Below, in pieces: positions 6,879 through 49,794 of a stretch of DNA of 64,000 nt. The DNA comes from Sumerlaeia bacterium (GTDB lineage: Bacteria; Sumerlaeota; Sumerlaeia; SLMS01; JAHLLQ01), in the NCBI GenBank assembly GCA_040219255.1, contig JAVJSW010000060.1:192001-256000 (forward strand), in the 5' to 3' direction. The first letter of the stretch is position 1; the number at the start of each line of letters is the position of its first letter. The position numbers and the translations under genes were made by a program. Below the pieces are notes generated by a model. The model was not told where the DNA came from. It made no database searches and worked only from the letters and a program-made list of their open reading frames with translations.

Positions 6879-8444
6879 CTAGAAATAATCCTCCCAGCCA
6901 TTTGCCCCCGCCAATTGCGCGGGCGCGTTGAGCGCTCCCGGGCTCGGCGCGAAGGCGGGACTCGCCGCCCCCGGCTGAAACTCCTCGAAAGCACCGAGGC
7001 CGTCCGGAACCCGTCCGATCGAGCCCCCGTCACTGCTGGCGCCCGCGTTGGCCTTGCGCGTCTCCGCGTCGCCATAGGACAGCGTGTCGCTGACCGTCGC
7101 TCCATCGCCCACGGTGATCGTCGCGCCCTCGTCGCTCAGGGCCAGACCCGGTACCTCGAATGCCACACCCTCGCTCAGGAATGACAGGTTCCCGCCCTCG
7201 GGAAAGAACACCACCACGCCCCGGGGCGTCAGCACGGTTCCCGCCCCGAGGACAAAGGTCTCGGTATCGCCGCCGCGTTCCACGCTCAGTTCCCAGCCCT
7301 TCAGGTCGATTTCGCGGTTCGTCAGGTTGTGCAACTCGACAAAGTCCTCCGCCGACGGATTCGGCACGCCGTCCTGGTTGAAATCTGTCGTATCGGCAAG
7401 CGCCCCACCCATCGGCGAGGGATCGTAGCCCACTTCGTTGACGACCACTTGTCCGGGCACCGCAGGGTCTACCACGATGACGAAGGAGGCTGTGATCGGC
7501 AGCGACTCGAGCGCCTTCGTCGCCGCCGTTTGGATGTCCAGCGACCCGGTGAACTGCCGGTCGGCGCTTGTGTCGCCGTTCGAGAAGCCAATGGTGAACG
7601 TGATGCTCTGGCCCGGGTTCAAGGTCTGCGGCAGGCTCAGCGCCGGATCGGTCGCGTCGAAGAACTCCGGGTCCGTGCCGGGGCCGAAGCCGACGCCGGT
7701 GATTTCCAGCGGGGCGTTGCCCGCGTTGCGGATTTCCACGTCCTGGGTGGCGGGCGATCCGTCCGTCGACTGGTTGAAATTGCCGAAGTCGACCGCGGTC
7801 ACGCCCGTCGAGAGAAGGGGCGTGCTGGTCGGCAGATCGTTGCCCGTGCCGGGCGTCGGGCCGCTGGGGACGAGGCGGCCGGTGCCTTCCGGCACGCGCG
7901 CGGCTGAGAGAATCTGGCGTGTGTCTTCGCCGCCCTCCAGCACAATCGGCGGGTCATCCACCCCAAAGGCGAGCCAGTCGGTGTTGGCCTCGCCGGTGCC
8001 AGGGCCATCGGTGGCATACACCACCACGTCGAGCAGCCCGAAGGGCGTCGCGGCGGTGCCGTTGGGGAAAGCCTGCTCGGTGCCCCAATAGAGCGCCACC
8101 GCGTCCTCGCCGTTCTGCATAGTGCGTGGCGGCCAAGTCACCACGGAGCCGGGGGCGGCCACGCTGGTCCCGATCACATAGCGCCCGCCCGCGTCGGTCA
8201 CGGCGCCGCTCAGCCCCATGGACCGATACGACAACCCGGTGCCGCCGTCGAAGAACACCACCACCAGCCCGTCGAGCGGGATGAAGGGCTCGTCGGTCCA
8301 AATCTCCACGAACTCCTCCACGTCGTCGCTGGGCGAGTCCGCGGTGTCCGAGTCCACTTCGTTGATGCGGAAGGTCAGCGCCGCCGCCGGCAGCGCCAGA
8401 GCGCAGGCTCCGGCTGTCAGAATTGTGATCAAATCGGTCCGCAT
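6879..8444 (-). CDS. Secreted protein with two lamin-tail-like domains and an ASH/Ig-like domain
   Basis: Signal peptide; INEVDSD...EFVEI and VNEVGYDP...DFVELHN; IRNAGNAPLEI...LNPGQS Ig-like segment; ends AGANGWEDYF. Confidence 0.75.
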   Translation of the reverse strand: MRTDLITILTAGACALALPAAALTFRINEVDSDTADSPSDDVEEFVEIWTDEPFIPLDGLVVVFFDGGTGLSYRSMGLSGAVTDAGGRYVIGTSVAAPGSVVTWPPRTMQNGEDAVALYWGTEQAFPNGTAATPFGLLDVVVYATDGPGTGEANTDWLAFGVDDPPIVLEGGEDTRQILSAARVPEGTGRLVPSGPTPGTGNDLPTSTPLLSTGVTAVDFGNFNQSTDGSPATQDVEIRNAGNAPLEITGVGFGPGTDPEFFDATDPALSLPQTLNPGQSITFTIGFSNGDTSADRQFTGSLDIQTAATKALESLPITASFVIVVDPAVPGQVVVNEVGYDPSPMGGALADTTDFNQDGVPNPSAEDFVELHNLTNREIDLKGWELSVERGGDTETFVLGAGTVLTPRGVVVFFPEGGNLSFLSEGVAFEVPGLALSDEGATITVGDGATVSDTLSYGDAETRKANAGASSDGGSIGRVPDGLGAFEEFQPGAASPAFAPSPGALNAPAQLAGANGWEDYF

Positions 8445-8630
8445 TGTGGCACCAACTTTCTTTGCTTCTGGAATTTGGTCCTATGGTCCGCCCTTGCCCT
8501 GCCGAGTCAAGGGCCGCTGGGACCTGGGGGAAAACTACTGGTCATCGCATCGATAATGGATCAAAATTGAACGCGAAGGTTAGGCCGGGATCGTCGAATC
8601 GTCACAGGAATCGACCGCGCGATTTTTTTT

Positions 8631-8658
8631 TGCAGGGTTGGCAAGCCCCCGTCGTCTG
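8631..8658 (+). promoter_or_regulatory. Possible ECF-type promoter of the adjacent sigma gene
   Basis: T-tract, then TGCAGG...CGTCTG about 60 bp upstream of the start; CGTC is a common ECF -10 core; speculative. Confidence 0.25.
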
Positions 8659-8717
8659 GTCACAGTGAAGGCCGGTGACACTCCGGCCTCTCAGAAATTC
8701 CCGAGACGAGCCCCGCC

Positions 8718-10262
8718 ATGACCACCGTCGCCGAGCCCGCCATGACTTCTTCGTCCGCCGCCGCCAACCCCGCCCCCGATCCCCGCGTGGCCCGCGCCCA
8801 AGCAGGCGATACGGCCGCCTTCGAGTCCCTCCTCAGCGAGCATTTCGGCTTGGTGTACACCATCGCCTACGCCCGCCTGCGCCATCGCGAAGCGGCCGAG
8901 GACCTGGCCCAGGAGGTCTTTCTCCGCGCCTGGCTCAACATCCGCACCTTGCGCGACGGCGCCGGGTTCGGGCCGTGGGTCGGGCGCATGACCCGGAATC
9001 TGGCGATCGACTGGCAACGGCGGGGCGAGCGGCATTCGAAACTCCTGACGTTGGTTCCAATGGACGACCTCCACTCCCGCACCGTGCCCGATACCGCCCA
9101 ATCGACCCCTCGCGAGACTGCATCCCGCGATCAGGAAGAAGCGCTCCTGCGCCAGGCCCTCGACCGCCTGCCCGCCCGCGACCGCGAACTGATCCTGATG
9201 CACTACTCGCGCGAACTGTCGAAAACCGAAATCGGCCGGCACTTCGGCGTCCACGCCACCACCATCGGGCGCCATCTCGAACGCGCCGTGGAACGCCTCC
9301 AGCGCCTCGCCGGAGGACACGCCGTCCGCCCGGAGAACCTGCGCCAGACCATCGGCCCCATGGCCCCGCCGCGTCCCGCCGCCTCGGCCCACGCCTTCGC
9401 CGTCGTGGCCGCCGCGTCGTCCCTCTCGCCCCAGGGTCAGGCCATGCTCGCCGCTGCCGCCAAAGCCACCGGCGCCGCCTCCTCGGCCAACGAATCGGCC
9501 GGTCTGGCGGGGCTTGTCTTCGGATTTCTGAAAACTCTCCCGGCCGCTTGCGCCACAGGAATTCAAACTATGGGAACCACCAAATTCATCACCGGAACCG
9601 TCGTTGCCGCCGCCCTGGGAGGCGGCGCCATCTACCTCGCCTCCGACGATCAGCCCAAGGCCCAGGCCAGCACCGCGGACGTTCAGATGACCACCGCCAC
9701 CGCCACTGAACTCAAGGCCCTGATCGCCGACCCCACCGCCGCCGATGTCTATCGCACTCTGCCCACCAACGGCCTCGTCACCATCGACATTCCCTTTGGC
9801 CAGACCGTCGTCCTCGACACCAACGCCCAGGAGTACCAGCTCGGCCAATGGCGCACCGCCATGACGGCGGAGGACGATTACACCCTCGCCGCCGTCACCC
9901 ACCACGACTTCACCGGAGCCCAGCCCTGGACCATCCATCCCGACCGCCCAGGCGACAACCCGCCGAGTCCTCCCGGCACCTCTTTCGGCCTGAACATGAA
10001 CCCGGACAGCGGGTCCTTCGTCGTCAGCTCCGCCGTCCTCGAAAAACAGCCCAGCGGCCTCCGCGTCCACATCCACACCGCCATGCGCCAGAACGCCGGT
10101 TATCGGTGGCAAGACATCCAGAATCAGTACAACAGCGGACAGCTCGACAAAATCGAGGCCCGCAAAGCGATCCTGCGCCTGCTCATGGGAGAAAACATGC
10201 TCCCCGAGCAGGAACTCAGCGCCCAGGCTTGGCGCGATCATGTGGCGGCCATGGACTGGTAA
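8718..10262 (+). CDS. ECF sigma factor fused to a TM segment and C-terminal extension
   Basis: AAEDLAQEVFLRAW...FGPWVGRMTRNLAID; region 4 LPARDRELILMHY...EIGRHFGV; TM GTVVAAALGGGAIYLA, then about 200 aa. Confidence 0.85.
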   Translation: MTTVAEPAMTSSSAAANPAPDPRVARAQAGDTAAFESLLSEHFGLVYTIAYARLRHREAAEDLAQEVFLRAWLNIRTLRDGAGFGPWVGRMTRNLAIDWQRRGERHSKLLTLVPMDDLHSRTVPDTAQSTPRETASRDQEEALLRQALDRLPARDRELILMHYSRELSKTEIGRHFGVHATTIGRHLERAVERLQRLAGGHAVRPENLRQTIGPMAPPRPAASAHAFAVVAAASSLSPQGQAMLAAAAKATGAASSANESAGLAGLVFGFLKTLPAACATGIQTMGTTKFITGTVVAAALGGGAIYLASDDQPKAQASTADVQMTTATATELKALIADPTAADVYRTLPTNGLVTIDIPFGQTVVLDTNAQEYQLGQWRTAMTAEDDYTLAAVTHHDFTGAQPWTIHPDRPGDNPPSPPGTSFGLNMNPDSGSFVVSSAVLEKQPSGLRVHIHTAMRQNAGYRWQDIQNQYNSGQLDKIEARKAILRLLMGENMLPEQELSAQAWRDHVAAMDW

Positions 10263-10286
10263 GGTACCACGGCCGTCCCGGCCGTG
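10263..10286 (+). repeat. REP-like palindrome (GTAG-type variant)
   Basis: ggtaccacggccgtcccggccgtg contains the hairpin cacggcc/ggccgtg; first 21 nt match the reverse complement of 38354-38374 at 19/21. Confidence 0.55.
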
Positions 10287-10325
10287 ACCCGCCACGCCTT
10301 CCCGCGAATGAAGAGGCCGTTGCCT

Positions 10326-11714: not shown

Positions 11715-14700
11715 TCAATAGACCAGCCAGACATGACCTTTGGGTGGCGCTTCGACAGTGATCGCCATGGTGCCTTCGCTGGCGGCGTTTTTGTCGTCGA
11801 CGATCAGAACCCGCACGGCGGTCTCGCCGAGGCTGCTGAACTGATGGGCAACGGTCGGAGCGGAGGTGAGGCGATCCAGCGTGCCATCGGCATCGAAATC
11901 CCAGCCGTAGATCTTCACTTCCCCGTCCGGATCAAGAGAACCAGAGGCCGTCAGGAGAGTGGGGCGATTGATGATGACGGGTAACGAATGAGCCATCTGG
12001 ATCGTGGGGGAGATGTTCTCAGGATCGGGCTCGGGAGCGGTGACCGTCAGTTCGAGGAGTTCGGCACCCAGGATCACACCATTTGCGTTCCGCGTCGTCA
12101 CCGTGATCGTTCGGGTTGCCTCTCCCTCCGCGACATAGGCCGGTTGGATAAGGTCAGGGGTTAGGGCCGTGGTGCCATCGCCGAAATGCCATTCGAAGGC
12201 GAACGGCGCACCGGGGCCTTCGGCGCCCGCATAGAACTGGATGAAACCGGGGCTGGTGACGCTCTGTGCGCTGGCGAAGGCGCTCACGGCGATGCGGTCA
12301 TGGGGCGCGCCGGCGGCAATCCAGTTCGCGATGGTGGCCCGATCGGCTTCGGAGAGCTGCGCCGTCAAAGGCATTGGCCCTCCGGCGGTGGGAATCGCGC
12401 AGGTGAGCTTTTCGAGAAGGAAACTTTCCGCGACGGACGACTGCGGGCCGCCGTCCTGGGGAACGAGGCGCCGGGTTGGGACCTCCCGGCTGTAGCGGCC
12501 GACAAGCCCCGAGTAGGCAAAGCCGTCGTCGAGCATCAGCCGCTCATAGGGTTCGGCGTTGCCGTGGCAACCGATGCAGTTGGCAGTGAGGATGTTCTGC
12601 ACCGAGGCGAAGCCGAGATCCACGCCCGGGGCCACCTCCGGCAGGGTCGAGCAGCCGCTGGCGTTGTCCTGGGGGATGAACTCCAGTGGGGCGGTATTCG
12701 GGCCGTCCTGGGCACGCGATACGATGGCCGGGCGGACGGCTTGGCTGGGGAAGGGCTCGGCGACGGCGCGGAAGGCGGCGCCCGGAGCGAGGGGAGGCAG
12801 GGGGATGGTGAATTCTCCCGCGGCGCCGGTGCGGACGGCGCTCGGGTAGCTCACCCCCGCGAGCCGGTGTGCGCCGGATACCGGCATCGGCAGCCAGTTA
12901 TCCCGCTCCATTTCGACCTCCAGGGCGACTTCCAGATTCGCGACCGGTGTGCCTGCCATCCGCACTGATCCCACAATGGCGTTCTGGGCCAGAAGTTGCC
13001 TGGCCTGGAACGAGGCCACATCGATGGGCACATAGACATCATGCGCAACGGCACCCGGAGCTGAGGCCCGCAAGATGAAGTGCGATCCATAGACTCGCAG
13101 GTCCATCAACTCAGCCCCATAGGAACCATTCTCCAGCGTGGCGAGCGATTCAAGGGGGACGGCGCCCGAGAGGAGGGCGCTTTTCCCGTCGGCATCAAGC
13201 AGCGTGACCGTGGCGGAGGTGGGCTCGGCTGGGTTGACATTCGCGTTGAAAACCCGCCCGGAGACTGAAATGGCGGGTACCCTGGCATAGGCTCCAATTT
13301 CAAGGGTCAGGTCCGCGCTGATGCCCATGTCGTTGGTCGCGGTGACCTTGACGGGATAGCGCCCGGGGTCTGTGAAGGTATGGGTCACGGCGCCCCCGTC
13401 GCTTGTGGTGCCGTCGCCAAAATCCCAGAGCAGGGTGGGGTTTCCGTCGCCACTGGCGGTGGCGCTGAACTGAACGGTCAGGGGCGCTTCGCCATCGGTG
13501 GCGCTGGCGGAGGCGGACAGGGAAGGAGGTTCGTTGGGGTCGCGATAGGAGATGCGGTCGATTTGGCCGAAGACATAGGCGGTCATGGCAATCAGCAGAG
13601 AGCCATCGGGCAGCACCGTCATATCGCCACCGCCGGGCTGATCGTTGGGATACTGATAGATGCTCTGGAGACCGATCGCCTCGCCGGTGGCATCGTCGAT
13701 TTCCAGCCGGAGGTATTCCCCGGCGGTGCCTTCGCCGGCGGGCAGAAAGCCCCAATCGCTGAGGATGATGTCTCCGGTCCAGTCCTCGGGAAACATGCCG
13801 CCGCGATACGCCAGGAGCGAGACAATGGCGTTGCCGTGCAGGGGCTCGGGGCCGTGGGGATAGGCGAGGAAAGGATCCCGGTGGTTTGGCGGCGGGGTGC
13901 CGATGGGGTCCTGGGCGGCGGGGCCTTCGATTTCCGGCCACCCATAGTTGGCGCCCGGTTCGATCACGTTGACTTCTTCCCAGACACCGCCGCCGGTGTC
14001 GGTGGAATACATGACATCGGAAACCGCGTCGTAATAGAGGCGGAAGGGGTTCCGCAGACCCAGCGCCCAGATGTAGTTCTCGGGCCGCAGCGTGCTGTCG
14101 ATGGCGAAGGGATTGCCCGGGGCTGGCGTGCCGTCGGGGTTCATGCGCAGGATCTTGCCGCGGAAGCTGGTGAGATCCTGGGAATTGCCGCCGAGGCCGT
14201 CCTCGCCGAGGGACAGGAAGAGTTTGCCATCGCCGCCGAATTCCAGCCCACCGGCGAAATGGATCACGCTGGCGAGGTTCGCGTCTGGGATGTCGAAGAT
14301 GATCGTGCCACTGCCTGGAACGATGGCGTTCTTGTCGCTTGGGTCGGCGGTGAATCGCTCGATGCGGATGCGGCGGTCCTGGGGAAAACCCGTCTCGGGG
14401 TCGTAGGGGGGAATGTCACGGGTGTAGGAGACGAAGAAATGGCCGGTCTGGGCGAAGTCTGGCGAGGCGACACAGCCAAGCATTCCCATCTCGCCCTGCA
14501 CCAAACCCCGGTAATCGAGAAAAAGCTGGGGAAGAATGCCGGTGCCATCGGCGTTCACGTCAGCCTCTGGGTCCCACAGATAGGCCCGATTGTCCATCAT
14601 GCCGATGAAGACCCGGCCATCGGGCAGGGCCTCCAGGGTGTTCGGGTGGCCCTGAAAAGACGTGGGATCCACGGGGTCGGGATTCCGCAAATCGGCGTGA

Positions 14701-17941: not shown

Positions 17942-20882
17942 ACGGGCGGGGCTAGCGTTCGCTCTGGCCCTAGCCCTCGCGTACTCCTCCTTCGCGACGT
18001 CCGATCGCTGGTTCGATTATGAAACGCTCTGGACCGATGTGCCGGCGGAGCGCCTGGCGGAAATCGGCGACTCCGGCGCGGACGCATGGATGCCCGCTTC
18101 CCTGGGCCGCGTCACCCGCCAGCGCTGGCCATGGTTCGAGTTTCATTTCTCCAAGACCGGCTGGTACGACGCGCCGCTGCCCGATGGCTCGACGATGCGC
18201 TTCGTGAGCATGCGCCGCACCGACGTCATGGCTCCGGAACTGCGTCAGGCCATGCTGGACGGGGGCTTCGACATCGCCACCTATTCGGGTGTCAGCGAGG
18301 ACGGCCGGCACACCATCGCCCTCGACCTGGGCGGGCCGCTGGGATTTCACGCAGCCATCCGCGGGCCAGAAACGGGGACCGTCTTCATTGACCCGGTGAC
18401 CCGCGACAAGACCGCCTTCACGTTCGTCAGCTACGCCAAAGCCAACGCCCCCAACGCCGGTCGGCTCCTGCCCTGCCTCGTCCAGGACGAACTCCCGCTC
18501 AAGCCCAGCGCCGAGAAGGGTTTTCCTTCCACCGGCAGCATTCTGCGCACGTATCGCCTCGCCGTCTCCGCCACCGGCGAGTACACCGCCTACCACGGCG
18601 GCGCTTCCCAGGCGATGGCATCCATCGTGACCGCCGTGAACCGTGTGAACCAGATTTTCGAGCGCGATCTGTCCGTTCGGTTCATTCTGGTTTCGGACAA
18701 TATGGACCTGATTTTCACCGATGCGGCGACGGACCCCTTCACGAATGGCGATCCGGACGCGATGCTGCTGGAGAACCAAACGGCGGTCGATGCCGCGATC
18801 GGACCGAACGGGTACGACGTGGGCCATGTCTTTGGCACGAACAGCGGCGGCGTCGCCTGGCTCGGCAGCGTCTGCGAACCCTCCTTCAAAGCCCGGGGCG
18901 TATCGGCGGCCTTCGAGCCCAACGGCGACCCTTTCTGGGTGGATTACGTGGCGCACGAAATCGGCCATCAGTTCGGCGCCAACCACACCTTCAACTCGCC
19001 GCTCGGATCCTGCATGGCGAACCGCAATGGGTCGGCGGCCTACGAACCCGGAAGCGGTTCCACGATCATGAGCTACTCTGGCCTCTGCAGCTCCGATAAC
19101 CTCCAATTTAACAGCGACTCGTACTTCCACACGCATAGCCTTCAGGAAATGCTGGCGTTCCTGACCAATCCGCAGGGCGCCGGCGAGTGCTTCGGCACGG
19201 TCCTTTCCGGCAACGGCAGCGCCCCCGTGGTGGATGCCGGACCGGACGTGACCATTCCGGCGAACACGCCTTTCTGGCTGACGGCGCCGCCAGCCATCGA
19301 CGGCGAGGACACGGCCTTGACCTATTGCTGGGAGCAATACGACCGCAGCGTGGCCGCGACGCTGAACGACGTGCGCACGGATCGCGGGCCTCTCTTCCGG
19401 TCCTTTCCGCCGGAGATCTCGCCGGATCGCTTCATTCCCCGCATGGACGACTTGCTGGAGGGTATGACCTCGCCCGGCGAGCGCTTGCCAGTCACGACGC
19501 GTACGCTGACGTTTCACCTGACGGTGCGCGACAATCACCCGGGGGGCGGCCGCGTGGGCGTGGACGAGCGCATCCTCTCCGTCGTCGAAAGCCCCGGCTT
19601 CCGCCTCCTCGCCCCCAACGGCGGCGAGGCCCTCGCCGGGGCCGCCGAGGTGCTCTGGGACCCGGCGGGAACGGACCGTTCGCCCGTTACGGCGGCTACC
19701 GTGGACCTGCTGCTTTCCACCAACGGCGGCGTCAGCTACGAGACGCTGGTGTCCTCCGGCCTGCCGAATACAGGCCGGGCGGTGGTGCGTCTGCCGGATG
19801 TGGAGGCCGCGCAAGCGCGCCTGATGATCCGCGGCGGCGGAAACATCTTCTTCGATATCAGCGACGGCGCCTTCTCCGTGGCGCCCGCCACGAATGGCGC
19901 CGCGTTTTTCCGGACGCGTAAGGACGCTCTCGACGATTCGGCCTACAACGGCAACGGCCACGCCGAACCGGGCGAGGTCGTGGCGCTCAGGCTTGGCATC
20001 GAAAACCAGGGCAATTTGGCGGCGGTGGCGGTCACGGGGCGGCTGGAGACGCTGACGGCGGGAACCGAAATCCTATCGGCCGAAGCCACTTTCCCGCCGC
20101 TGGAAATCGGCGCGGCGGGCACGAACGACGAGCCCTTCCTGCTGCGCATCGCCTCGGATTTCGTCTGCGGCGATACGGTCGAGATGCAACTCGTGGTCGA
20201 GTCCGACGCAGGAACCAGCACCCTGCCACTGTCTCTCTCAACCGGCGTTTCCACAAACACCGCGCTTCTGGAGGAAGGCTTCGAACCGCCTTCCGCCGTC
20301 GATGGCTTCACCACCATGGTGATGGCGGGGGAGGACCGTTGGGCCGTGCGAACGGCCTCCGCGAGCCCCGCCGCACCCCACAGCGGCACGGCGCTACTGC
20401 GCTACGAACCGCGCCTTGCGGAAATCGCCGACGTGCGCCTTGTCACGCCGGCGGTGACGGGCGCCGAACGCATCCGTTTCTATCACACCTACGACATCGA
20501 GGCGGGCTGGGACGGCGCGGTGCTCGAATTGTCCGTCGATGGCGGATCCACCTGGTTCGACGCCGAGCCCTACTTTGTGTCCGGAGGATACAATTTCCGT
20601 CTGAACGCCCCGCCGAGTCCCACACTCCCCGGCGGCAGTTCGAACCCGCTGGCGGGCCGGCGCGCCTGGACCGCCGGAGACATTGGGCCGATGGAAGAGG
20701 TTCTTCTCGATGTGTCCGAATGGGCAAGCGAGTCGCTTCAGGTCGGATTCCGGTGGGGCTCCGACGACTCCGGCGTCTCGCTCGGCGGCTGGTTTATCGA
20801 CGACCTGCGCATCGAGCGAACGGCTTCGCGCTGCGAGGCGCCCCTGCGCCCGGCCGGGGTGACGGGGGTTCAGCTTCACTGA
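17907..20882 (+). CDS. Secreted reprolysin-like (M12B) zinc metallopeptidase with accessory domains
   Basis: HEIGHQFGANH zinc motif, Met-turn STIMSY, YRLAVSATGEY; NGNGHAEPGE Ig-like and C-terminal jelly-roll-like domains; start uncertain. Confidence 0.88.
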   Translation: MRFLTPPKRTIERAGLAFALALALAYSSFATSDRWFDYETLWTDVPAERLAEIGDSGADAWMPASLGRVTRQRWPWFEFHFSKTGWYDAPLPDGSTMRFVSMRRTDVMAPELRQAMLDGGFDIATYSGVSEDGRHTIALDLGGPLGFHAAIRGPETGTVFIDPVTRDKTAFTFVSYAKANAPNAGRLLPCLVQDELPLKPSAEKGFPSTGSILRTYRLAVSATGEYTAYHGGASQAMASIVTAVNRVNQIFERDLSVRFILVSDNMDLIFTDAATDPFTNGDPDAMLLENQTAVDAAIGPNGYDVGHVFGTNSGGVAWLGSVCEPSFKARGVSAAFEPNGDPFWVDYVAHEIGHQFGANHTFNSPLGSCMANRNGSAAYEPGSGSTIMSYSGLCSSDNLQFNSDSYFHTHSLQEMLAFLTNPQGAGECFGTVLSGNGSAPVVDAGPDVTIPANTPFWLTAPPAIDGEDTALTYCWEQYDRSVAATLNDVRTDRGPLFRSFPPEISPDRFIPRMDDLLEGMTSPGERLPVTTRTLTFHLTVRDNHPGGGRVGVDERILSVVESPGFRLLAPNGGEALAGAAEVLWDPAGTDRSPVTAATVDLLLSTNGGVSYETLVSSGLPNTGRAVVRLPDVEAAQARLMIRGGGNIFFDISDGAFSVAPATNGAAFFRTRKDALDDSAYNGNGHAEPGEVVALRLGIENQGNLAAVAVTGRLETLTAGTEILSAEATFPPLEIGAAGTNDEPFLLRIASDFVCGDTVEMQLVVESDAGTSTLPLSLSTGVSTNTALLEEGFEPPSAVDGFTTMVMAGEDRWAVRTASASPAAPHSGTALLRYEPRLAEIADVRLVTPAVTGAERIRFYHTYDIEAGWDGAVLELSVDGGSTWFDAEPYFVSGGYNFRLNAPPSPTLPGGSSNPLAGRRAWTAGDIGPMEEVLLDVSEWASESLQVGFRWGSDDSGVSLGGWFIDDLRIERTASRCEAPLRPAGVTGVQLH

Positions 20883-29025: not shown

Positions 29026-31827
29026 ATGTTTGAGAGTCTACGTCACCGTACCCTGATGCCTGCCATCTTCTCGGCCGTCTTCGCCGCCCTGCTGGGCGGC
29101 CTGGCCTGGTCCGGGCCCTATGATCCCCCGGCGGGATATTATAACAGCGCCGACGGCCTTACCGGCACCGCGCTCGAATCCGCCCTCAACGACATCGTCG
29201 ATGGCCACACCCGCTACTCCTACAGCCAGGTCTGGACCATCCTCCAGGAACTCGACGAAGACCCCGCCAACACCAGCAACATTCGCTGCATCTATTCCAA
29301 TCGCTCCATGCCCAAAAGCGACCGCGACGGCTCCTCCAGCGCCACCTACGTCTGGAACCGCGAGCACTCCTGGCCCAAGAGCCTCGGCTTCCCCAGCGAA
29401 GGCCAGTACGGCTACACCGACGTCCACCACCTCTTCGCCAGCGAACGCAACATCAACAGCGCCCGCGGCAACAAGCACTTCGATTTCTCCAATCCCGCCA
29501 CCTTGACCTATGATGTCATCGGCTTTACCCAGAACAACACCGCCGACACCGACTCTTTCGAACCCCACGACGATGTGAAGGGCGATGTGGCCCGGGCGAT
29601 GTTCTACATGGCCGTCCGCTACGATGGCACCGACGGCAGCATGCCCGACCTTTACCTCTCCAACCAATACACCGGCACCGACATTCCCCGCATGGGCATG
29701 CTCGACACGCTCATCCAGTGGCACACCCTCGATCCCGTCGATGATCGCGAACGCCGCCGCAACCACCTGATCTACATCAACTGGCAGGGCAACCGGAACC
29801 CCTTCGTGGACCGGCCCGAGCTGGTTTGCGAAATCTGGGGCGGCGATTGCTCCATCTATAACGGCGGCGGCAATCCCGGCGGAGATCTGCTCGCTTCTTC
29901 CGACTTCGAAGGCGGCCTCGGTGACTTCGTGAACGTCTCCGGCGACAGCCACGACTGGACCCGCGACAGCGGCGGCACCCCCAGTTCCGGCACCGGCCCC
30001 AGCTCCGGCGCCAACGGCTCGACTTGGTACGCCTTCGTCGAAACCTCCAGCGGCGGCGCCTACTCCAGCGGCAACACCGCCTTCCTCCAGGCCTCAGGCA
30101 TCGGTGGCAGTAACCGCGTCATCAGCTTCAACTACCACATGCTCGGCAGCAACTCCGGCACGCTCAGCCTCCAGGTCTCCACCGGCGGCAGCTTCAGCAC
30201 CGTCTGGAGCCAGAGTGGCCAGCAGTCCGCCAGCCAGACCGACTGGAAGTCCGCCACCGTGGACCTCGGCGCTTACTCGGGCACCATGAGCCTGCGTTTC
30301 GCCTACACCGCAGCCGGTGGTTGGTCCGCCGACCCGGCGCTCGACGACATCTTCGTCACAGGCACCACGAGCGGCGGCACCCCCACGCCGACCCCGACCC
30401 CGACCCCAACCCCGACACCCACTCCGACGCCCACACCCACCCCGACACCGATTCCCGGCGGCGGCACGCTGACCAGCGGCCAAACGGTGAGTGGCACCGT
30501 CGTCCAGAACGCCTGGACCCACTATACCATCTCCGTCCCCAGCGGCTCCTCCGCCCTCGACATCGTCATGACCGGCGACAATGACGCCGATCTCTACGTC
30601 AAGTTCGGCAGCCAGCCCACCGCTTCCTCCTGGGACTACCGTCCCTACGTCGGCGGCTCGAACGAAACGGTGAACGTCAGCAGCCCCGCCGCTGGCACCT
30701 GGCACATCTCGGTGAACGGCTACGCCGCCAGCAGCAATTACAGCCTGACCGCCACCATCACGGCGGGCGGCACGCCGACACCGACGCCGACCCCCACTCC
30801 GACGCCCACGCCGACTCCTACCCCGACGCCGACGCCGACTCCTGGCGGCACCAACGTCTGGATCAACGAAATTCACTACGACAACGACGGCACCGACACG
30901 AACGAGGGCGTGGAAATCGCCGGCACCGCGGGCACGAGCCTGAGCGGCTGGAAAATCGAAGCCTACAACGGCAACGGCGGCGGCCTCTACATCACCACCA
31001 ATCTGAGCGGCACCATCCCGAATCAGAGCAACGGCTACGGCACCGCCTTCTTCGCCATCTCCGGCCTCCAGAACGGCGCCCCCGATGGTGTCGCAATCAT
31101 CGACGGCACAGGCGCCGTCGTCCAGTTCCTCAGCTATGAAGGCACCATGACGGCCACCTCCGGCAGCGCCAGCGGCCAGACCTCGCAGGCCATCACCACC
31201 AGCGAAACCTCCACCTCGACCGTCGGCCACAGCCTCCAGCTCACCGGCACCGGCACCAGCTACGCCGACTTCACCTGGGCCAATTCGGCCGCCAGCACCT
31301 ACAATGCCCTGAACAATGGCCAGAGCTTCGGCGGATCGACCGGTGGAGGCACCACGACCCTCGCCAGCGCCGATTTCGAGAGCAGCCTTGGCTGGACGAG
31401 CAGCGGCAGCGAAGGCTGGACCCGCGACGCCAGCGGCACCCCCAGCAGCGGCACCGGCCCCAGCGCCGCTTCCCAGGGCAGCTACTACGCCTACATGGAA
31501 ACCTCAAGCGGCGCCGCCTACAGCGCCGGTAACGACGCCATCCTGACCAGCCCGGCCATCGGCGGCACCAACCGTTCCGTCAGCTTCGACTACCACATGT
31601 ATGGCGGCAACACGGGCTCGCTGCATCTGGAAGTCAGCACCGGCGGGTCCTGGAGCACTGTCTGGAGCCGCACCGGCCAGCAGACCAGCAGCCAATCCAC
31701 CTGGAGCAGCGCCACCGTTGACCTCAGCGGCTACTCCGGCACCATCCAGGTCCGCCTCCGCGCCGTCGCCGCCGGAGGCTGGCAGGGCGACACCGCCATC
31801 GACAATGTTGTGGTGACGGGCAGCTAA
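29026..31827 (+). CDS. Secreted endonuclease I-family nuclease with MAM-like, PPC and lamin-tail domains
   Basis: WNREHSWPKS, DVHHL...NSARGN, KGDVARAMFYMAVRY, QGNRNPFVD; two WTRD.GGTPSSGTGP-type MAM-like domains; DADLYVKFG PPC; WINEIHYDN LTD. Confidence 0.92.
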   Translation: MFESLRHRTLMPAIFSAVFAALLGGLAWSGPYDPPAGYYNSADGLTGTALESALNDIVDGHTRYSYSQVWTILQELDEDPANTSNIRCIYSNRSMPKSDRDGSSSATYVWNREHSWPKSLGFPSEGQYGYTDVHHLFASERNINSARGNKHFDFSNPATLTYDVIGFTQNNTADTDSFEPHDDVKGDVARAMFYMAVRYDGTDGSMPDLYLSNQYTGTDIPRMGMLDTLIQWHTLDPVDDRERRRNHLIYINWQGNRNPFVDRPELVCEIWGGDCSIYNGGGNPGGDLLASSDFEGGLGDFVNVSGDSHDWTRDSGGTPSSGTGPSSGANGSTWYAFVETSSGGAYSSGNTAFLQASGIGGSNRVISFNYHMLGSNSGTLSLQVSTGGSFSTVWSQSGQQSASQTDWKSATVDLGAYSGTMSLRFAYTAAGGWSADPALDDIFVTGTTSGGTPTPTPTPTPTPTPTPTPTPTPTPIPGGGTLTSGQTVSGTVVQNAWTHYTISVPSGSSALDIVMTGDNDADLYVKFGSQPTASSWDYRPYVGGSNETVNVSSPAAGTWHISVNGYAASSNYSLTATITAGGTPTPTPTPTPTPTPTPTPTPTPTPGGTNVWINEIHYDNDGTDTNEGVEIAGTAGTSLSGWKIEAYNGNGGGLYITTNLSGTIPNQSNGYGTAFFAISGLQNGAPDGVAIIDGTGAVVQFLSYEGTMTATSGSASGQTSQAITTSETSTSTVGHSLQLTGTGTSYADFTWANSAASTYNALNNGQSFGGSTGGGTTTLASADFESSLGWTSSGSEGWTRDASGTPSSGTGPSAASQGSYYAYMETSSGAAYSAGNDAILTSPAIGGTNRSVSFDYHMYGGNTGSLHLEVSTGGSWSTVWSRTGQQTSSQSTWSSATVDLSGYSGTIQVRLRAVAAGGWQGDTAIDNVVVTGS
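30379..30450 (+). repeat. (Thr-Pro)12 linker repeat
   Basis: 72 nt of ACN-CCN codons. Confidence 0.9.
30772..30843 (+). repeat. (Thr-Pro)12 linker repeat, second copy
   Basis: 72 nt of ACN-CCN codons. Confidence 0.9.
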
Positions 31828-33493: not shown

Positions 33494-35659
33494 ATGCGCC
33501 GTCTTGCCCTTCCCCTTTGCTTCACAACGACCCTGGCCGCCACCGCCTTCGGGCAATCCTTCCTCAACGGGATCGAACTCGAGGCCCAGCCCGCCGTCGT
33601 CTGGACCTCCGCGTTGGCCCAGACTCCCCTCGCAGAGGACGTCGTCCTCGCGGTGATTTCCCAGTCCGGCCGCTCCGCCAAAGCCCGCGCCGCCCTCGAA
33701 CGCCAGGGATTCCGGGTGCTGGCGGCTCTGCCCCGCGACGGATATCTGGTGGCGGTCGACCGGCCGGATGCCGCCAGCGCGGCGCTGGTGGCAGCGGCCG
33801 ACCCGGCCTTTCGCGCGATGACAGTCGCGCCGGAATGGAAGATCGCCCCGGACTTCGCCTCCGTCCTCGCTTCGGCGCCCCCCGGCGAGGACATCGGTGT
33901 GGCTGTGTTCACCTCCCGCCCCGGTCTGGAAGCCGAACTCGCGGCCGTGGCCGCGGGGCACGGCGCGTCGCTGACCTCGCGCTCCGAGTCGGGCAAAGGC
34001 CGCGCCGGAATCCGCGTCCCGGCCCAGAACCTGCCCGCGCTCCTCACCGCTCTCGCGGACCTGCCGGCCGTCTATAACATCCAGCCAGCCGGCGGAGCCC
34101 GCCTGCTCAACGACAGCGCTTCGGAAATCCTCCAGAGCGGAAGCCCCACCGGCGGCCGCTCCATCGCCGCCCAGGGTCTTCAAGGCACGGATCAAGTCAT
34201 CGCGATCCTCGATTCCGGACTCGACTGGGATAGCTGCTTCTTCCGCGAGAGCGACGACTCCGCCCCGCCCACCGTCTCCGGCACCGGCATCGGTTCGCCC
34301 GATTCATCGCGCCGCAAAGTCATCGTCTACGATTTCCTCTTCAGCGGCGATTTCGCCGGCGGCAACGGCGACTTCGACAACAACGGCCATGGCACCTACG
34401 TCGCCGGCAACGCCGCCGGGTCCCAGATCACCAGCCCCACCGGCGACGCCTCCCTCAATGGCATCGCGCCCCTCGCCCAACTCGTCATCCAGGATGGCGG
34501 CTATACCACGGATAACAACTGCTCGGACATGGCGGGGCTCGGCTGTCCCCTGATCGACATCACGCCCATCCTGGATCAGGCCGTGGCCCAGGGCGCCCAC
34601 CTGCACAACGACTCCTGGGGCGATCGGGAAAACTTCCTGCCCAACAACACCTACACCGCCACCTGCGTCGATATGGACGATGCCACATGGCGCAATCCGG
34701 GGTTTCTGATTTTCTGCGCGGCGGGCAACAGCGGCCCCGCCGACAACACCGTCGGCAGCCCCAGCACCGCCAAGAACGTCCTCTCCATCGCCGCCGGCCA
34801 GAACCAAAACTCTGTCTTCAATAACGACCCGGAAAGCATCACCAGTTTCTCCAGCCGGGGATACGCCGCCGACGGGCGCTTCAAACCCGACCTGGTAGCG
34901 CCGGGCCAGACCGTGTCCGCCTTCAGCGATGGCAATGTCACGTCGAATAACTGCAATATCCTCAACCCGCAAGGCACCAGCATGGCCAGCCCGCTGGCCG
35001 CGGGGGCGGGGGCTCTCGTCCGCGAGTACTTCACCGATGGTTTCTATCCCACCGGGGCCGCCCTCCCCGGCGATGCCTTCGTGCCATCGGCGGCGCTGAT
35101 GAAGGCCGTTCTGATCAATGGCGCCGTGGATATGACCGGCGTCACCGGCCCCGTGCCCAACCGGGCCGAAGGCTGGGGCCGCATTCATCTGGACAACAGC
35201 CTCCACTTCACCGGAGACGACCGCACCATGCTCGTGGTGGATGAGGCGGACATCTTCGATTCGTCCTCCAACGCGCCGCGCCAATACACCTTCTCCGCGG
35301 GCGGCAACGCCGCCGCCGGGCAACTCAAGGTGACGCTGGTCTATACCGACGCGCCCGCCGATCCGCTGGCGTCCGTGTCGCTCGTCAACGATTTGAACCT
35401 CACCGTTACCGATGGCACCGACACCTGGCTCGGCAACAACTTCGATTCGGTGTCCGGCGAGAGCGTCACCGGAGGCGCCGCCGACGCCCTCAACAACGTC
35501 GAGCAGGTCACCCTGCCCGCCAGCACCACCGGCACCTTCACCGTCAGCGTCACCCCCGCCGTCATCGATGTCGTCGATCAGGGCTTCGCCCTGGTCATTG
35601 CCGGCGACGTGTCGAACTTGCAGGTGACCTCTGTGGGGGATTGGCGCCGGGCGGAGTAA
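33494..35659 (+). CDS. Secreted S8 subtilase (KP-43-like)
   Basis: Catalytic ILDSG, HGTYVAG, AAGN, GTSMASP; PSAALMKAVLINGA, LVNDLNL, LNNVEQV; ends TSVGDWRRAE. Confidence 0.93.
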   Translation: MRRLALPLCFTTTLAATAFGQSFLNGIELEAQPAVVWTSALAQTPLAEDVVLAVISQSGRSAKARAALERQGFRVLAALPRDGYLVAVDRPDAASAALVAAADPAFRAMTVAPEWKIAPDFASVLASAPPGEDIGVAVFTSRPGLEAELAAVAAGHGASLTSRSESGKGRAGIRVPAQNLPALLTALADLPAVYNIQPAGGARLLNDSASEILQSGSPTGGRSIAAQGLQGTDQVIAILDSGLDWDSCFFRESDDSAPPTVSGTGIGSPDSSRRKVIVYDFLFSGDFAGGNGDFDNNGHGTYVAGNAAGSQITSPTGDASLNGIAPLAQLVIQDGGYTTDNNCSDMAGLGCPLIDITPILDQAVAQGAHLHNDSWGDRENFLPNNTYTATCVDMDDATWRNPGFLIFCAAGNSGPADNTVGSPSTAKNVLSIAAGQNQNSVFNNDPESITSFSSRGYAADGRFKPDLVAPGQTVSAFSDGNVTSNNCNILNPQGTSMASPLAAGAGALVREYFTDGFYPTGAALPGDAFVPSAALMKAVLINGAVDMTGVTGPVPNRAEGWGRIHLDNSLHFTGDDRTMLVVDEADIFDSSSNAPRQYTFSAGGNAAAGQLKVTLVYTDAPADPLASVSLVNDLNLTVTDGTDTWLGNNFDSVSGESVTGGAADALNNVEQVTLPASTTGTFTVSVTPAVIDVVDQGFALVIAGDVSNLQVTSVGDWRRAE

Positions 35660-43363: not shown

Positions 43364-43397
43364 CGCCAACCCCCTCGACCCAAAGGACGACGAACCG

Positions 43398-43793: not shown

Positions 43794-43825
43794 GTCGGTG
43801 GCACGGGCTCTTCCGGAGCGGGCGC

Positions 43826-45441: not shown

Positions 45442-45543
45442 GGGAATGAGCCTTTAGGGGGTGGAGTTTGCGTTGAAACACCGTGCAAAGGAAAGGCCAA
45501 GCCGGAGCGGGCCCATCCCAATTCCGGAACTGATCGTGACTTA

Positions 45544-46353
45544 TTACCCGAGGGCCACTTCCGCACCGGGCCCGAGGTAGGCCTCGACCACGCGCGGGTC
45601 GTTCTGCACCGATTCGGGGGGGCCGCTGGCGATGATTTCGCCGTGGTCGAGAACGTAGATGGCGTCGCTGATTTCCATAACCAGCTTCATGTCGTGCTCG
45701 ATCAGGAATACCGTCACGCCGGCCTGGCGAATGCGGCGGATCAGTTCGACCAGCTTGGCCGTCTCGGCCGGATTCATGCCCGCCGCCGGTTCGTCGAGCA
45801 GCAGCAGGCGCGGGTTGTTCGCCAGGCCGCGGGCGATTTCCAGGCGCCGCTGGTGGCCGTAGCTCAGGGAGGCGGCCTGCTCCTGGGCCTCGTGCTCCAG
45901 GCCGACGAACATCAGCCGGTTGAGCGCCCAGGTCTTAAGCGCCAGCTCCTCGCGGTTGGTCTTCGGCAACCGCAGCATCGCGCCCATCAAGCCGGCGCGG
46001 CCTTGCAGGTGGGCCCCCAGCATCACATTCTCGATCACCGACAGGCGGGGAAAAAGGCGGATGTTCTGGAATGTGCGCGAGACGCGGCGGGCGGTGATCT
46101 GATCGGGGCGCTTGCCTTGCAGAGGAACCTCGCGGCCGTTGGCTTCGCGCAGGAGGATTTGGCCGTTGGAGGGTGGAATGAGGCCGGTGCAGGTGTTGAA
46201 CAGCGTCGTCTTGCCCGCGCCGTTGGGGCCGATCAGGGCGACAATCTCGCCCTCGCGGACCTCCAGGCTGGCGTCCTTGATGGCCTGCACACCGCCGAAA
46301 TTCTTCGACACGTTGCGGATCGAGAGAATGGGCGGGGCGTCAGTGCGAGTCAT
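45544..46353 (-). CDS. livG: Branched-chain amino acid-type ABC ATP-binding protein (LivG-like)
   Basis: GPNGAGKTT, RTFQNIRLF, LSYGHQRRLEIAR, LDEPAAGMN, EHDM, VVEAYLG. Confidence 0.85.
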   Translation of the reverse strand: MTRTDAPPILSIRNVSKNFGGVQAIKDASLEVREGEIVALIGPNGAGKTTLFNTCTGLIPPSNGQILLREANGREVPLQGKRPDQITARRVSRTFQNIRLFPRLSVIENVMLGAHLQGRAGLMGAMLRLPKTNREELALKTWALNRLMFVGLEHEAQEQAASLSYGHQRRLEIARGLANNPRLLLLDEPAAGMNPAETAKLVELIRRIRQAGVTVFLIEHDMKLVMEISDAIYVLDHGEIIASGPPESVQNDPRVVEAYLGPGAEVALG

Positions 46354-46487
46354 GGGGGCGGGCTCAGCGGGTGATCTAAGTCCCTATGCAGCCCGAAGCC
46401 AGCAGTGTGTAAAGGCGAAATGGGACCGTGGCTCGGGGGATTGTGAGGAACGAATAAGGACCCTTGGTCACAACCCCCCGCCGCCCC

Positions 46488-47879
46488 TCAGCCCCCGCCC
46501 TCGATCACGCCGAGGGCCTCGTCCACCACGTCGGCAATGAAGTCGGCGTCGGCTTTGGTCAGACACATGGGCGGTTTGATGCGCAGGACGTTGCCCCAGA
46601 GGCCGCCCTTGCCGAGCAGCAGGCCGCGTTCGCGGGCGAGTTCGAGGAGGCGGGCGGTTTCCGCTTTGGCCGGTTCTTTGGTCGTGCGGTCTTTGACCAG
46701 TTCGACGCCGAACATCAGGCCGAGCCCGCGCACGTCGCCGATCAGGGCGCGGCGCTGCTGGATTTCCAGGAAGCGCTCCTTCAGGTGGGCGCCGATGGCC
46801 TTGGCGTTGGCCTGGATGCCTTCTTCGTCGATGACTTCCAGGGTGGCCTTGGCGGCGGCCATGCTGACCGGATTGCCGCCGTAAGTGTTGAAGTGGATGC
46901 GGCGTTTCATTTGCTCGGCGATTTCCATGCGGGTGGTCACGGCGCCGAGAGGGGCGCCGTTGGCGATGCCCTTGGCCATGGAAACGAGATCGGGCTGAAC
47001 ATCCCAGTGCTCGAAGGCCCAGAAGTTCTCGCCGGTGCGGCCGAATCCGCCCTGCACTTCGTCGGCGATGCAGACACCACCGTACTTGCGCACGGTGTCG
47101 TAGACGATGCCGAAGTATTCCTTGGGCGGAATGACGACGCCGCCGACGCCCTGGATGCACTCGCCGATGAAGGCGGCGATTTCGCCGGAGGTCTCGTACT
47201 GGATTTTGTCGTCCAGGTCGCGGGCGCACTTGACGTTGCAACTCGGGTATTCGAGGCCGAAGGGGCACCGGTAGCAGTAGCCTGGGGTGGCGTGGATCGC
47301 GTTCTGGGGCGGCCCGGCGGGGAATTTCCAGGTGCCGTGGGCCGTCAGGCCCATCGTCGTCCCGGTGCCGCCATGATAGCCATTGCGAAGCCCGATCACG
47401 GTTTCACTGCCGGTGAAGAGGCGCGCCATCAGGATCGCCGTTTCGTTGGCCTCGGAGCCGGAGTTCGTGAAGTAGCTCACATCCAGATCACCGGGGAATT
47501 TGTCGGCGAGGGCCTTGGCGTAGAGGCCGACGTTGGGGTGCAGGTAGATCGTCGTCGTGTGCTGGAGCTTTTGGAGCTGCTCGACCTGGGCGCCGATGAC
47601 TTTGGGGTGCGAGTGGCCGACGCTGACGGTGACGATGCCGCCGAAGGCGTCGAGGTACTGGCGCCCATCTTTGTCATACAGGTACTGCCCTTTGCCTTCC
47701 ACGATCATGAGCGGCTGGGAATAGAGATGGAAGATGCCCGGATTGAGGTGCTCGCGGCGCAGGGCGAGCGCTTCGTCGAAGGACGGCCCCTCGTAAGGGA
47801 CGGGGGTGTAGCCGCTGGCGGGCGGGGCGAGCGGTTGCGCTGGGGCGGATTGGCTGGGGGAAGAAGTGGGGGGAGTCAC
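46488..47879 (-). CDS. Class III PLP aminotransferase (AGXT2/Pyd4-like)
   Basis: NSGSEANE, YHGGT, ECIQGVGG, DEVQGGFGRTG, MAKGIANG, NTYGGNP. Confidence 0.9.
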   Translation of the reverse strand: MTPPTSSPSQSAPAQPLAPPASGYTPVPYEGPSFDEALALRREHLNPGIFHLYSQPLMIVEGKGQYLYDKDGRQYLDAFGGIVTVSVGHSHPKVIGAQVEQLQKLQHTTTIYLHPNVGLYAKALADKFPGDLDVSYFTNSGSEANETAILMARLFTGSETVIGLRNGYHGGTGTTMGLTAHGTWKFPAGPPQNAIHATPGYCYRCPFGLEYPSCNVKCARDLDDKIQYETSGEIAAFIGECIQGVGGVVIPPKEYFGIVYDTVRKYGGVCIADEVQGGFGRTGENFWAFEHWDVQPDLVSMAKGIANGAPLGAVTTRMEIAEQMKRRIHFNTYGGNPVSMAAAKATLEVIDEEGIQANAKAIGAHLKERFLEIQQRRALIGDVRGLGLMFGVELVKDRTTKEPAKAETARLLELARERGLLLGKGGLWGNVLRIKPPMCLTKADADFIADVVDEALGVIEGGG

Positions 47880-48180
47880 GACAGAGTCCGTTCCTTACAC
47901 GATGACTAGCGGCACGGTCCAAGAGGCCAGGGCCGGGAAACCATTGATTCGGTCAACAGTGAGGAGTGCCGGAGAGGAAGGGTTTCGTCAAGTGGGATGA
48001 AATTTTTCGTTCTTTCAATGCTGAATAATGAAAGAATGTGGTAAGATCGGGGCACTTCGCTTGTATCTGCAAAAATTTCGGCGCAATTTCCTCTTGATTG
48101 CGTCCTGAGAAAAGCCATTCTCAGGATGGTAATGGCGAAGAGTGCCATGCTCCCCTCAACGAAACTAAGGAGAGAGAGGA

Positions 48181-49794
48181 ATGAAATTTCCCCCAATAAC
48201 TCAATTTGCAATGAAGACGTCGATTTTAGGCGTGGTCTTCGCCGCACTCCCGTTCCTGGCCATCCACACCCCCGCCCAGGACACACTTTTCCTGGATTTC
48301 GACGACTATCTGGGCGGCCGAATCATCGATGATGAATATGTGCTCAGCCACGGCGTCACCTTCAGCGTGATCAACCCGAACAACGGCGGGGATCCAGACC
48401 TCGGTGTCCTTTATCCCTCCAACGTGGAACCGCCCGCTGGTCTCAGCACCGGCCTCTTCGACCCCGATTTGCAGGGACCGCCGACGAGTTATGGCAACTG
48501 GGCCACGGGCAACGCGGCGACGGAGAGCGCCGGCAACGTCCTGATTTCCCAGGAAACGAACCCCGAGGCGGCGGAGATCGCCGCGGGACAGCTCGGCAAC
48601 AAGAGCAATCCCCCGGACATCCCGGGTTTGACCGATGACCAGGAAACATACCCCGACGATCAAGGCAGCGGCTCCACCATCGTCGCCGTCCTCGACACAC
48701 CGGCCCGCGCCGTGCGGTTCAACTGGGTGGACCTGGACAACGGCGCCAGTGCTCCCGCCAAGCTGACGATCCGCTTCGTCGATACGCTGACCGGCGGCAG
48801 CCCTTCCATCGACATCCCGGTGCTGGCCTTTGTGACGAACAACGGAAACCCGTTTTACGATTCGACGGTGGCGTGGGCGGATGGATCGTTCGACCGGCTC
48901 GAGGAGATGGATCTCGACGAGATCAATTTCTACGAGGCCAACTACGGGCCGAACGCCACGACCCTGACCCGCTTCAACCGGGTCGAATGGATTGTCATTA
49001 CCTCCGGTGGCCTCGGCGATTTCATCGAGTTCGAGCCCATCGCCCAGGGTTGCTTCGGCGACATCGTCTTTAATGACACGGACAGCGACGGCGTCTTCGA
49101 GCCCAACAAGCCCAACGGCACCGACGAGACCGGCATCCCCGGCGTCGTCATGAACCTGTACCAGGATAACAACAACGACGGTGTCTTCGACGGAGGCGAT
49201 ACCCTTTATCGCCAGACGGAGACCGACGCGAATGGCTTCTACGAATTCATCGGACTGCCCGCCGGCAATTACGTCGTGGTGGTGGACGAAACCGGCGTCC
49301 TCTCCGGAATGACCAGCACGGGCCCCAACATTGACGAGGATGGCGAAACGCTCTCGACGGACGAGTGCTACGCCGCCGGCGACTTCGGTTACACGTCCAG
49401 CATCCTGGCGGTCGACCTCGTGTCCTTCGAGGCCCACCCCGGCGGCGCGGGCGAACCGATCGTCATCGCTTGGGAGACGGAGGCGGAAATCGACAACCTG
49501 GGCTTCAACCTCTACCGGGCGATTCCGTCGCCGATGCGCCGCGGGCCCGGAAGCGGCGGTGGCTGGAGCGTTGGGCCGAAGCTCAACGACGACCTGATTC
49601 CGGCCGATCCGACGGCTCTGCTTGGCGGCGCCGAGTATGCCTTCACGGACTTGGCCGGCTACGATCCCGCGGCGGCGCGCGGCTATTTCCTGGAAGACGT
49701 GGACGCTTCGGGCCGGACGACCCTCCATGGCCCGGCGATGATTCTGCCGTCGAAGCGCGATTCCGGGGTGGAGAGCTGGCGCATGGCCGAGTAA
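48181..49794 (+). CDS. Secreted protein with SdrD-B-like domain and C-terminal Ig/FN3-like domain
   Basis: Signal peptide (alternative start 48211); GDIVFNDTDSDG...TDANGFYEF; AVDLVSF...WETEAEIDNLGFNLYR; ends SGVESWRMAE. Confidence 0.78.
   Translation: MKFPPITQFAMKTSILGVVFAALPFLAIHTPAQDTLFLDFDDYLGGRIIDDEYVLSHGVTFSVINPNNGGDPDLGVLYPSNVEPPAGLSTGLFDPDLQGPPTSYGNWATGNAATESAGNVLISQETNPEAAEIAAGQLGNKSNPPDIPGLTDDQETYPDDQGSGSTIVAVLDTPARAVRFNWVDLDNGASAPAKLTIRFVDTLTGGSPSIDIPVLAFVTNNGNPFYDSTVAWADGSFDRLEEMDLDEINFYEANYGPNATTLTRFNRVEWIVITSGGLGDFIEFEPIAQGCFGDIVFNDTDSDGVFEPNKPNGTDETGIPGVVMNLYQDNNNDGVFDGGDTLYRQTETDANGFYEFIGLPAGNYVVVVDETGVLSGMTSTGPNIDEDGETLSTDECYAAGDFGYTSSILAVDLVSFEAHPGGAGEPIVIAWETEAEIDNLGFNLYRAIPSPMRRGPGSGGGWSVGPKLNDDLIPADPTALLGGAEYAFTDLAGYDPAAARGYFLEDVDASGRTTLHGPAMILPSKRDSGVESWRMAE

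Follow-up and report, generated by a model that had tools for sequence, protein, structure and literature searches.

A short C-terminal tryptophan tail on unrelated exported proteins of Sumerlaeota is a probable address tag

Why should exported proteins that share no domain end in much the same handful of residues? The question is raised by a 64-kb window (the whole stretch of DNA analysed, C60:192001-256000) in the genome of a Sumerlaeia bacterium, a member of the Sumerlaeota. A preliminary description had noted that five proteins encoded there, of unrelated folds and each with a signal peptide, finish in a similar short tail, and had proposed that the tail is a sorting signal. Re-translation gave all five ends as they had been written and at the same positions (Table 1). 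The domain contents are indeed unrelated: Pfam assigns Peptidase_S8 to the S8 protease, SdrD_B to the SdrD-like protein, LTD to the lamin-tail protein, GSDH and three PKD domains to the PQQ/PKD dehydrogenase, and Reprolysin to the M12B protease. The tail, with its tryptophan (Trp), is present on the first four. The M12B protease, whose end directly follows a MAM-like domain, has no Trp, so it cannot be scored by a Trp-anchored profile and is not a member. The four window tails belong to a genome-wide set of 88, within which they score 5.0-5.6. The two most alike, TSVGDWRRAE and SGVESWRMAE, differ in the codons that encode them and are followed by unrelated DNA, so their likeness lies at the level of the protein. 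The explanation that we consider probable, if by no means certain, is that the tail serves as a recognition tag, a C-terminal module of about ten residues, borne by exported proteins and used throughout the Sumerlaeota.

The genome (5.35 Mb in 83 contigs, 92% complete) yielded 3910 genes, called by codon log-odds and covering 85% of the DNA; signal peptides were assigned by a heuristic. If such ends mark exported proteins, Trp should be over-represented near their C-termini, and at positions -4/-5 it is about 4.4-fold commoner in proteins with a signal peptide. Of the 1075 proteins with a signal peptide, 61 have Trp at -4 and 51 have it at -5; of the 1958 that lack both a signal peptide and a membrane helix, the numbers are 26 (odds ratio 4.5, p=3e-11) and 22 (p=2.5e-9). 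At -1 to -3 and -7 to -12 the frequencies in the two groups are 1.0-2.0% and 0.7-1.5%, respectively. The end-anchored expression W.[LMIVFA][YFLVIMA][EDQN]{0,2}$ matches 62 proteins, against 3-19 after 3-60 C-terminal residues have been trimmed, and with Val added at -3 from the Trp it matches 26, against 0-1 in the truncation controls. Of 244 candidate ends, 88 reach a score of at least 3 with a Trp-anchored profile; the rate seen at 20670 internal Trp residues would predict 2.9. Because this profile had been trained on the ends that it scored, cross-validation was run with the contigs split in halves, and the held-out halves gave 28 matches against 1.9 expected and 22 against 1.2. By the heuristic, 75 of the 88 tail proteins have a signal-peptide-like N-terminus.

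The consensus of the tail is [AST]-[SA]-[SN]-V-x-[DNG]-W-x-[LMV]-[YF], followed by a stop or by one acidic residue. The stop comes immediately after the aromatic position in 46 of the 88; in the others E (18), D (8), Q (5), ED (2) or something else (9) intervenes. Thus 42 tails have one or two residues past the aromatic, acidic in 29 of them (E 18, D 8, ED 2, ND 1). A subclass ends in G-W-h-h-[RK]. The genes with a tail are about 2% of all genes and encode mostly hydrolases and adhesins.

Two kinds of evidence show that the tail is modular. The first is the diversity of its carriers: the 88 proteins form 83 full-length similarity families. Outside the window, 72 pass the signal-peptide heuristic; in a random sample of 20 of these, 8 had no Pfam domain and 12 had named ones. 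The enzymes were a GH31 protein, an alpha-amylase, two GHL10 proteins, an S13 peptidase with Golvesin_C and an FAD oxidoreductase with Golvesin_C, and the others were three FG-GAP proteins and one each with SdrD_B, laminin-G and PD40. The second is structural. In the SdrD-like protein the tail follows a domain without a Pfam name, here called HGP, which AlphaFold models as a seven-strand beta sandwich with a predicted local distance difference test (pLDDT) above 90; the last 16 residues of the protein have a pLDDT of 51-57 and no secondary structure. Seven of the eight HGP copies in the genome carry a tail 10-17 residues past the last strand, and pure Pro/Thr linkers precede some other tails. 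The possibility that the tails are merely the last strand of each preceding domain is thereby answered, since the linkers vary in length, the tail is disordered in the model and homologues in other phyla do not have it. The tail is attached to unrelated proteins, is flexible and lies outside the fold.

The HGP domain has no match in Pfam or NCBIfam, and a Foldseek comparison of its model with PDB returned only generic fibronectin/Ig folds (best E=1.5e-3). It is a fibronectin-like domain with the pattern W.T..E.DN.GF.[LV]YR ... Y[FY]LED[VI]D..G..T.HGP, and in many phyla it directly precedes the C-terminal signal, a placing comparable to that of pre-anchor domains.

Table 1. Positions in the 64-kb window of the protein ends and of the pre-tail domain
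Feature	Gene	Position	Strand	Basis	Profile score
Trp tail TSVGDWRRAE, S8 protease	33494-35659	35627..35656	+	translation	5.6
Trp tail SGVESWRMAE, SdrD-like protein	48181/48211-49794	49762..49791	+	translation	5.1
Trp tail AGANGWEDYF, lamin-tail-domain protein	6879-8444	6882..6911	-	translation	5.5
Trp tail PKGHVWLVY, PQQ-dehydrogenase/PKD protein	11715-14792/14903	11718..11747	-	translation	5.0
End AGVTGVQLH, M12B protease (non-member)		20853..20879	+	translation, no Trp	
HGP pre-tail domain of the SdrD-like protein, seven-strand beta sandwich, no Pfam name		49393..49740	+	AlphaFold model	

Elsewhere in the window, positions 29056-31827 encode an exported endonuclease I with a PPC and two MAM domains that stops right after the last MAM domain and has no tail.

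Conservation within the phylum was followed through the S8 protease, which has homologues in 43 of 61 Sumerlaeota genomes. At 14 loci of other Sumerlaeota genomes a complete homologue has the same last domain, then a variable linker and then a Trp tail (examples are GWSLY, MWILY, DWSILK, AWRLY, VWTIYE and YDWEWY); three complete homologues (L008, L009, L016) have none. For this protease, then, the tail is kept among homologues of the phylum while the linker before it changes, and the tails of other phylum genomes are encoded by codons unlike those of the window. Among the 120 database S8 homologues listed, Trp tails are present in 11 by the profile and in about 18 by eye, mostly among the closest, and the named homologues that have them are BRC1 or Sumerlaeia, names that agree with the lineage to which the preliminary description had pointed.

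Most DNA patterns were rejected as proxies for the tail, being too noisy (11 matches against 4-11 in controls); a narrower one gave 8 against 1-3. The phyletic count used the DNA pattern for V-x-[DNGS]-W-x-h-[YF]-stop in the 61 phylum genomes, with the reversed pattern as a control (0-5 per genome). Most genomes of nine families have 6-53 matches and a few have 1-4. By family, the counts per genome are 10-53 in f5, 5-19 in f3, 17 in f4, 10-16 in f12, 7-14 in f11, 6-11 in f9, 3-9 in f1, and 1 and 8 in f2; one genome of another class (G003) has 18, and f6, f7, f8, f10 and f13-f15 are near background. Families f7 and f8 are negative by this pattern yet carry variant tails. Samples of 400 kb from low-count families contain RWRLYDE and RWRLYR in G009 and SWMLYD and DWMLLR in G041, and in 680 kb of G004 four giant proteins end in ALWLMR, ASWMIR, AVWMVR and ASWWVY. 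(These giants, of 1700-2700 residues, are encoded on C1 at 3.0-3.28 Mb, loci L206-L219.) Since the low-count families and G004 show such variants, the tag appears to be phylum-wide in the Sumerlaeota, although its sequence drifts. In five genomes of other phyla (Thermodesulfobacteriota, Chloroflexota, Coatesbacteria, Poribacteria and Acidobacteriota) the pattern is at background, with 1-5 matches against 0-4 in the control.

What stands at the same place in homologues from elsewhere? We surveyed the HGP domain with a three-sequence alignment as query, taking one genome per species, and read the residues beyond it by eye at 59 loci of many phyla, a sample biased by the two peptide words used. 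At the sole Sumerlaeota locus the domain is followed by TSVQDWHLF and a stop. At four loci, one of them from Dyadobacter, it is followed by a T9SS (type IX secretion system) type A C-terminal domain, with TIGR04183 scores of 36.8 (L135), 49.1 (L163), 45.8 (L166) and 26.4 bits (L167) against a cut-off of 23; SprA was found over the TIGR04189 cut-off in all three of the genomes of such loci that were tested. About 15 loci from Thermodesulfobacteriota and 'delta' genomes have a short ...TPRLI[FY]G..K end instead, those from Chloroflexota have ..[YF][LI]P.. ends, and those that are Coatesbacteria-like have 20-30 residues with a final Arg. The tail in Thermodesulfobacteriota/'delta' metagenome-assembled genomes is approximately [AV]-[TM]-P-R-[LWFM]-[IL]-[FY]-G-x-x-K-stop (L111, L113-L117, L120, L121, L123-L125, L127, L129, L130 and L143). 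The tails that follow HGP in Thermodesulfobacteriota/'delta' and Chloroflexota may be further undescribed tags, and the occurrence of this domain with different short tails in these and other phyla suggests that small tags are widespread and have been overlooked by domain libraries.

The S8 protease gives a similar picture. In its remote homologues (Acidobacteriota, Myxococcales, Kofleriaceae and others) the chain finishes with the last domain, continues into PPC or PKD domains, or ends in FADGFESGDTSAW..P; a F-[AST]-D-G-F-E-S-G-D-x-x-x-W-x-x-x-x-P end is seen in P0031, P0034, P0044, P0055, P0057, P0069, P0104 and P0109, some of them from Acidobacteriota. Three remote homologues end in a Cys, a helix and Arg, and one of these, P0085, matches the MYXO-CTERM model TIGR03901 with 25.2 bits (cut-off 20), a model without a match in the window proteins or in the close S8 homologues P0008 and P0023. 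The Trp tail thus occupies the place that known surface-sorting signals take in homologues elsewhere.

To our knowledge, how diderm bacteria beyond the Bacteroidota and Proteobacteria choose the periplasmic proteins that cross the outer membrane is largely unknown. A recognition tag is the best supported reading of the Trp tail because of its position, its modularity and its conservation across the lineage. Its carriers (glycoside hydrolases, proteases and repeat adhesins) would leave the cytoplasm via Sec to work on the cell surface or beyond it. In the periplasm or the outer membrane, a component would recognise the Trp together with the negative charge and the pair of hydrophobic residues, and would then hand the protein to an outer-membrane exit or fix it on the surface. 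The tail would be of use as a peptide bait, as a predictor of the exoproteome of an uncultured phylum and possibly as a portable export tag.

Several observations count against this reading. Of the original proposal, a tag for outer-membrane secretion or surface attachment, it is the tag that our data support; the sorting function and its machinery, and any role of the tail in transport, cleavage or binding, we infer from sequence. Many clearly exported proteins have no tail, the endonuclease/MAM protein and the M12B protease of the window among them. The signal-peptide heuristic is crude: it flags 35% of genes and overlooked the signal peptide of the S8 protease, which is plain by eye. The narrow DNA pattern misses variants such as RWRLYDE and SVWTIYE, and therefore its counts cannot separate presence of the tail from absence.

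What might read such a tag? We rank a type II secretion or pilus-like apparatus first, the PorU-like C25 peptidases second and direct non-covalent anchoring third, and hold even the first of these only tentatively. The largest paralogous family of the genome consists of 39 GspG-like pseudopilins, and there are eight secretin genes together with T2SSE ATPases. Pilin-like genes are weakly enriched beside tail genes: 6 of 87 have one as a direct neighbour, as do 17 of the 741 remaining signal-peptide genes (p=0.026) and 23 of 1832 others. An expanded type II secretion or type IV pilus-like apparatus is for these reasons a possible reader. In a more specific and rather doubtful form of the proposal, the tail would be a linear export signal read by the secretin/pseudopilin apparatus, with the pseudopilin paralogues as its cargo adaptors. 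If true, a type II-like secretion pathway would have its first short linear signal, and the tail would exemplify a broader, so far unrecognised group of C-terminal tags, ten residues long and varying between phyla. The pseudopilin paralogues have a common end motif of their own, Y-D-P-T-N-G-T-V-S-x-G-D.

The genomic context speaks in part against such a reader. About 90% of the tail genes have no pilin neighbour; the family-wise adjacency value of p=9e-4 is uncorrected for about 150 families; and every one of the 61 phylum genomes searched shows the pseudopilin family expanded to a like degree. A conserved pilin/tail gene pair was rejected, for the pairing of g0766 with g0765 is not kept in 10 orthologous loci. 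Around the eight secretin genes, a tail gene lies within a distance of seven genes in just two cases, and the neighbourhoods are otherwise uninformative.

Somewhat less probable is a reader of another kind, by analogy with the T9SS, whose sortase is PorU according to two papers (PMC4560394, PMC8545088). The genome encodes four Peptidase_C25 proteins, and these might remove the tail and, in the manner of PorU, attach the protein to a glycan of the surface, here without the rest of the T9SS: the cut would fall at the small residues before Val-x-x-Trp, and the acceptor would be a glycolipid whose synthesis depends on the O-antigen-ligase-like and epimerase genes nearby. The longest of the four, g1441, has PorU as its best solved relative (6za2, E=4e-19; gingipain R, 3.5e-8). 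All four match only the peptidase part of NF033707, and their scores, 175 bits at most, stay below its cut-off of 420. Two motifs, GHGGP and SCD, are invariant in 10 of 10 aligned sequences; we take these to contain the catalytic His and Cys of C25. Four partners share the operon with g1441: genes for a TPR protein, for a membrane protein with 10 helices, for an NAD epimerase and for an O-antigen-ligase-like TPR protein (Wzy_C). The C25-TPR pair recurs in five other Sumerlaeota genomes from five families, and the whole operon in two. In the genome studied here (G000) the operon lies at C39:168085-179506 (L190), its PorU-like C25 peptidase, with CARDB, being 1822 residues long. C25 is present in 59 of the 61 phylum genomes, and it is in the position after HGP that the Trp tail stands here and the T9SS domain elsewhere. 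When the C25 domain of g1441 was modelled in complex with HGP plus tail, the score was 0.00, a value that tells neither for nor against.

Against a C25 reader, and to that extent against a tag with this sortase, stand four facts. Genus g19 is alone in lacking C25 yet retains Trp(-4) tails, and G004, which has no C25 match, has the variant tails of its giant proteins. Four of the five other-phylum genomes (Poribacteria, Chloroflexota, Coatesbacteria and, weakly, Acidobacteriota) have PorU-like C25 genes with the tail pattern at background. The tail genes are not clustered with C25 genes. Finally, SprA and PorV were not found in the genome. We therefore regard the tail as a C25 substrate signal only as a secondary possibility.

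An alternative that does away with dedicated sorting altogether is that the tail is a passive surface anchor or a protective cap, its aromatic and hydrophobic end sticking in the outer leaflet, binding a surface polymer or blocking trimming by periplasmic tail-specific proteases. The tail is indeed short and flexible, with a Trp-x-hydrophobic-aromatic end; the searches for dedicated components (sortase, exosortase, SprA and PorV) in this genome found none; and the sequence before the Trp drifts between phylum families, as that of a loosely constrained motif would. Four hydrophobic residues are nevertheless little for membrane anchoring, and small residues and a Val at fixed spacing before the Trp would be needless in a merely greasy end. 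The 42 tails that extend past the aromatic, 29 of them with acidic residues, are better explained by recognition by a protein. We consider a passive anchor or cap unlikely, and direct non-covalent anchoring no likelier.

That the common ends reflect chance, composition or a DNA-level element overlapping the ends of genes is scarcely credible and was rejected, for although lone cytoplasmic proteins do have a near-terminal Trp (the FGAM synthase of the window ends in DAWMTEP), the tails are 15-30 times as frequent as expected, held-out contigs included, the truncation controls are low, the codons behind the same residues differ and the five genomes of other phyla show the pattern only at background.

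A recognition tag of exported proteins has to be compared with the sorting signals already described. No tail matched an NCBIfam model: none of the five window proteins has an NCBIfam sorting-signal match, the nearest approach being a sub-threshold 'choice-of-anchor D' match in the lamin-tail protein (39.5 bits, cut-off 45). When 15 C-terminal pieces were compared with NCBIfam, 12 had no match and three had unrelated low matches upstream of the tail. In the 92%-complete genome no sortase (PF04203) or exosortase (PF09721) was found, rhombosortase and myxosortase lying outside the search, and models for SprA/Sov and PorV (PF14349, TIGR04189, NF033710) had no match. Inspection of 65 hydrophobic C-termini by eye revealed no family with a membrane helix and basic tail, the LPXTG type included. 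The listings and abstract openings returned by a full-text literature search contain no description of the tail, and the Sumerlaeota genome paper PMC8092238, its supplements apart, has no occurrence of 'C-terminal' or 'sorting'. The Trp tail is probably an undescribed address tag.

Substrates of type I secretion differ from the tail proteins in that they have no N-terminal signal peptide, whereas 75 of the 88 have one by the heuristic. For type II secretion we know of no substrate signal defined as a linear motif. Outer-membrane barrel proteins carry a C-terminal beta-signal and are served by PDZ readers, and there too an aromatic and hydrophobic end is found on proteins that reach the periplasm; the carriers of the Trp tail, however, are soluble multidomain enzymes and adhesins, not barrels, their hydrophobic positions do not alternate, and residues follow the aromatic in 42 of the 88. 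With LPXTG, PEP-CTERM, MYXO-CTERM and GlyGly-CTERM the tail shares the character of a lineage-specific tag on many unrelated exported proteins, but it has neither the membrane helix nor the basic end. The T9SS C-terminal domain is a folded unit of about 70-80 residues (the PF18962 model, Por_Secre_tail, has 75 positions), whereas the Trp tail is some ten disordered residues without a TIGR04183 or PF18962 match; the single match to PF18962, a weak one of 29.2 bits, lies elsewhere in the genome. SprA and PorV, not found here, mark a further difference, SprA having been detected in the three T9SS control genomes. In other respects the T9SS type A signal offers a likeness: it too forms the very C-terminal end of hydrolases and adhesins exported through Sec, it does without a membrane helix, and in homologues it stands after HGP just where the Trp tail does here. 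PorU-like C25 peptidases are encoded in this genome as well.

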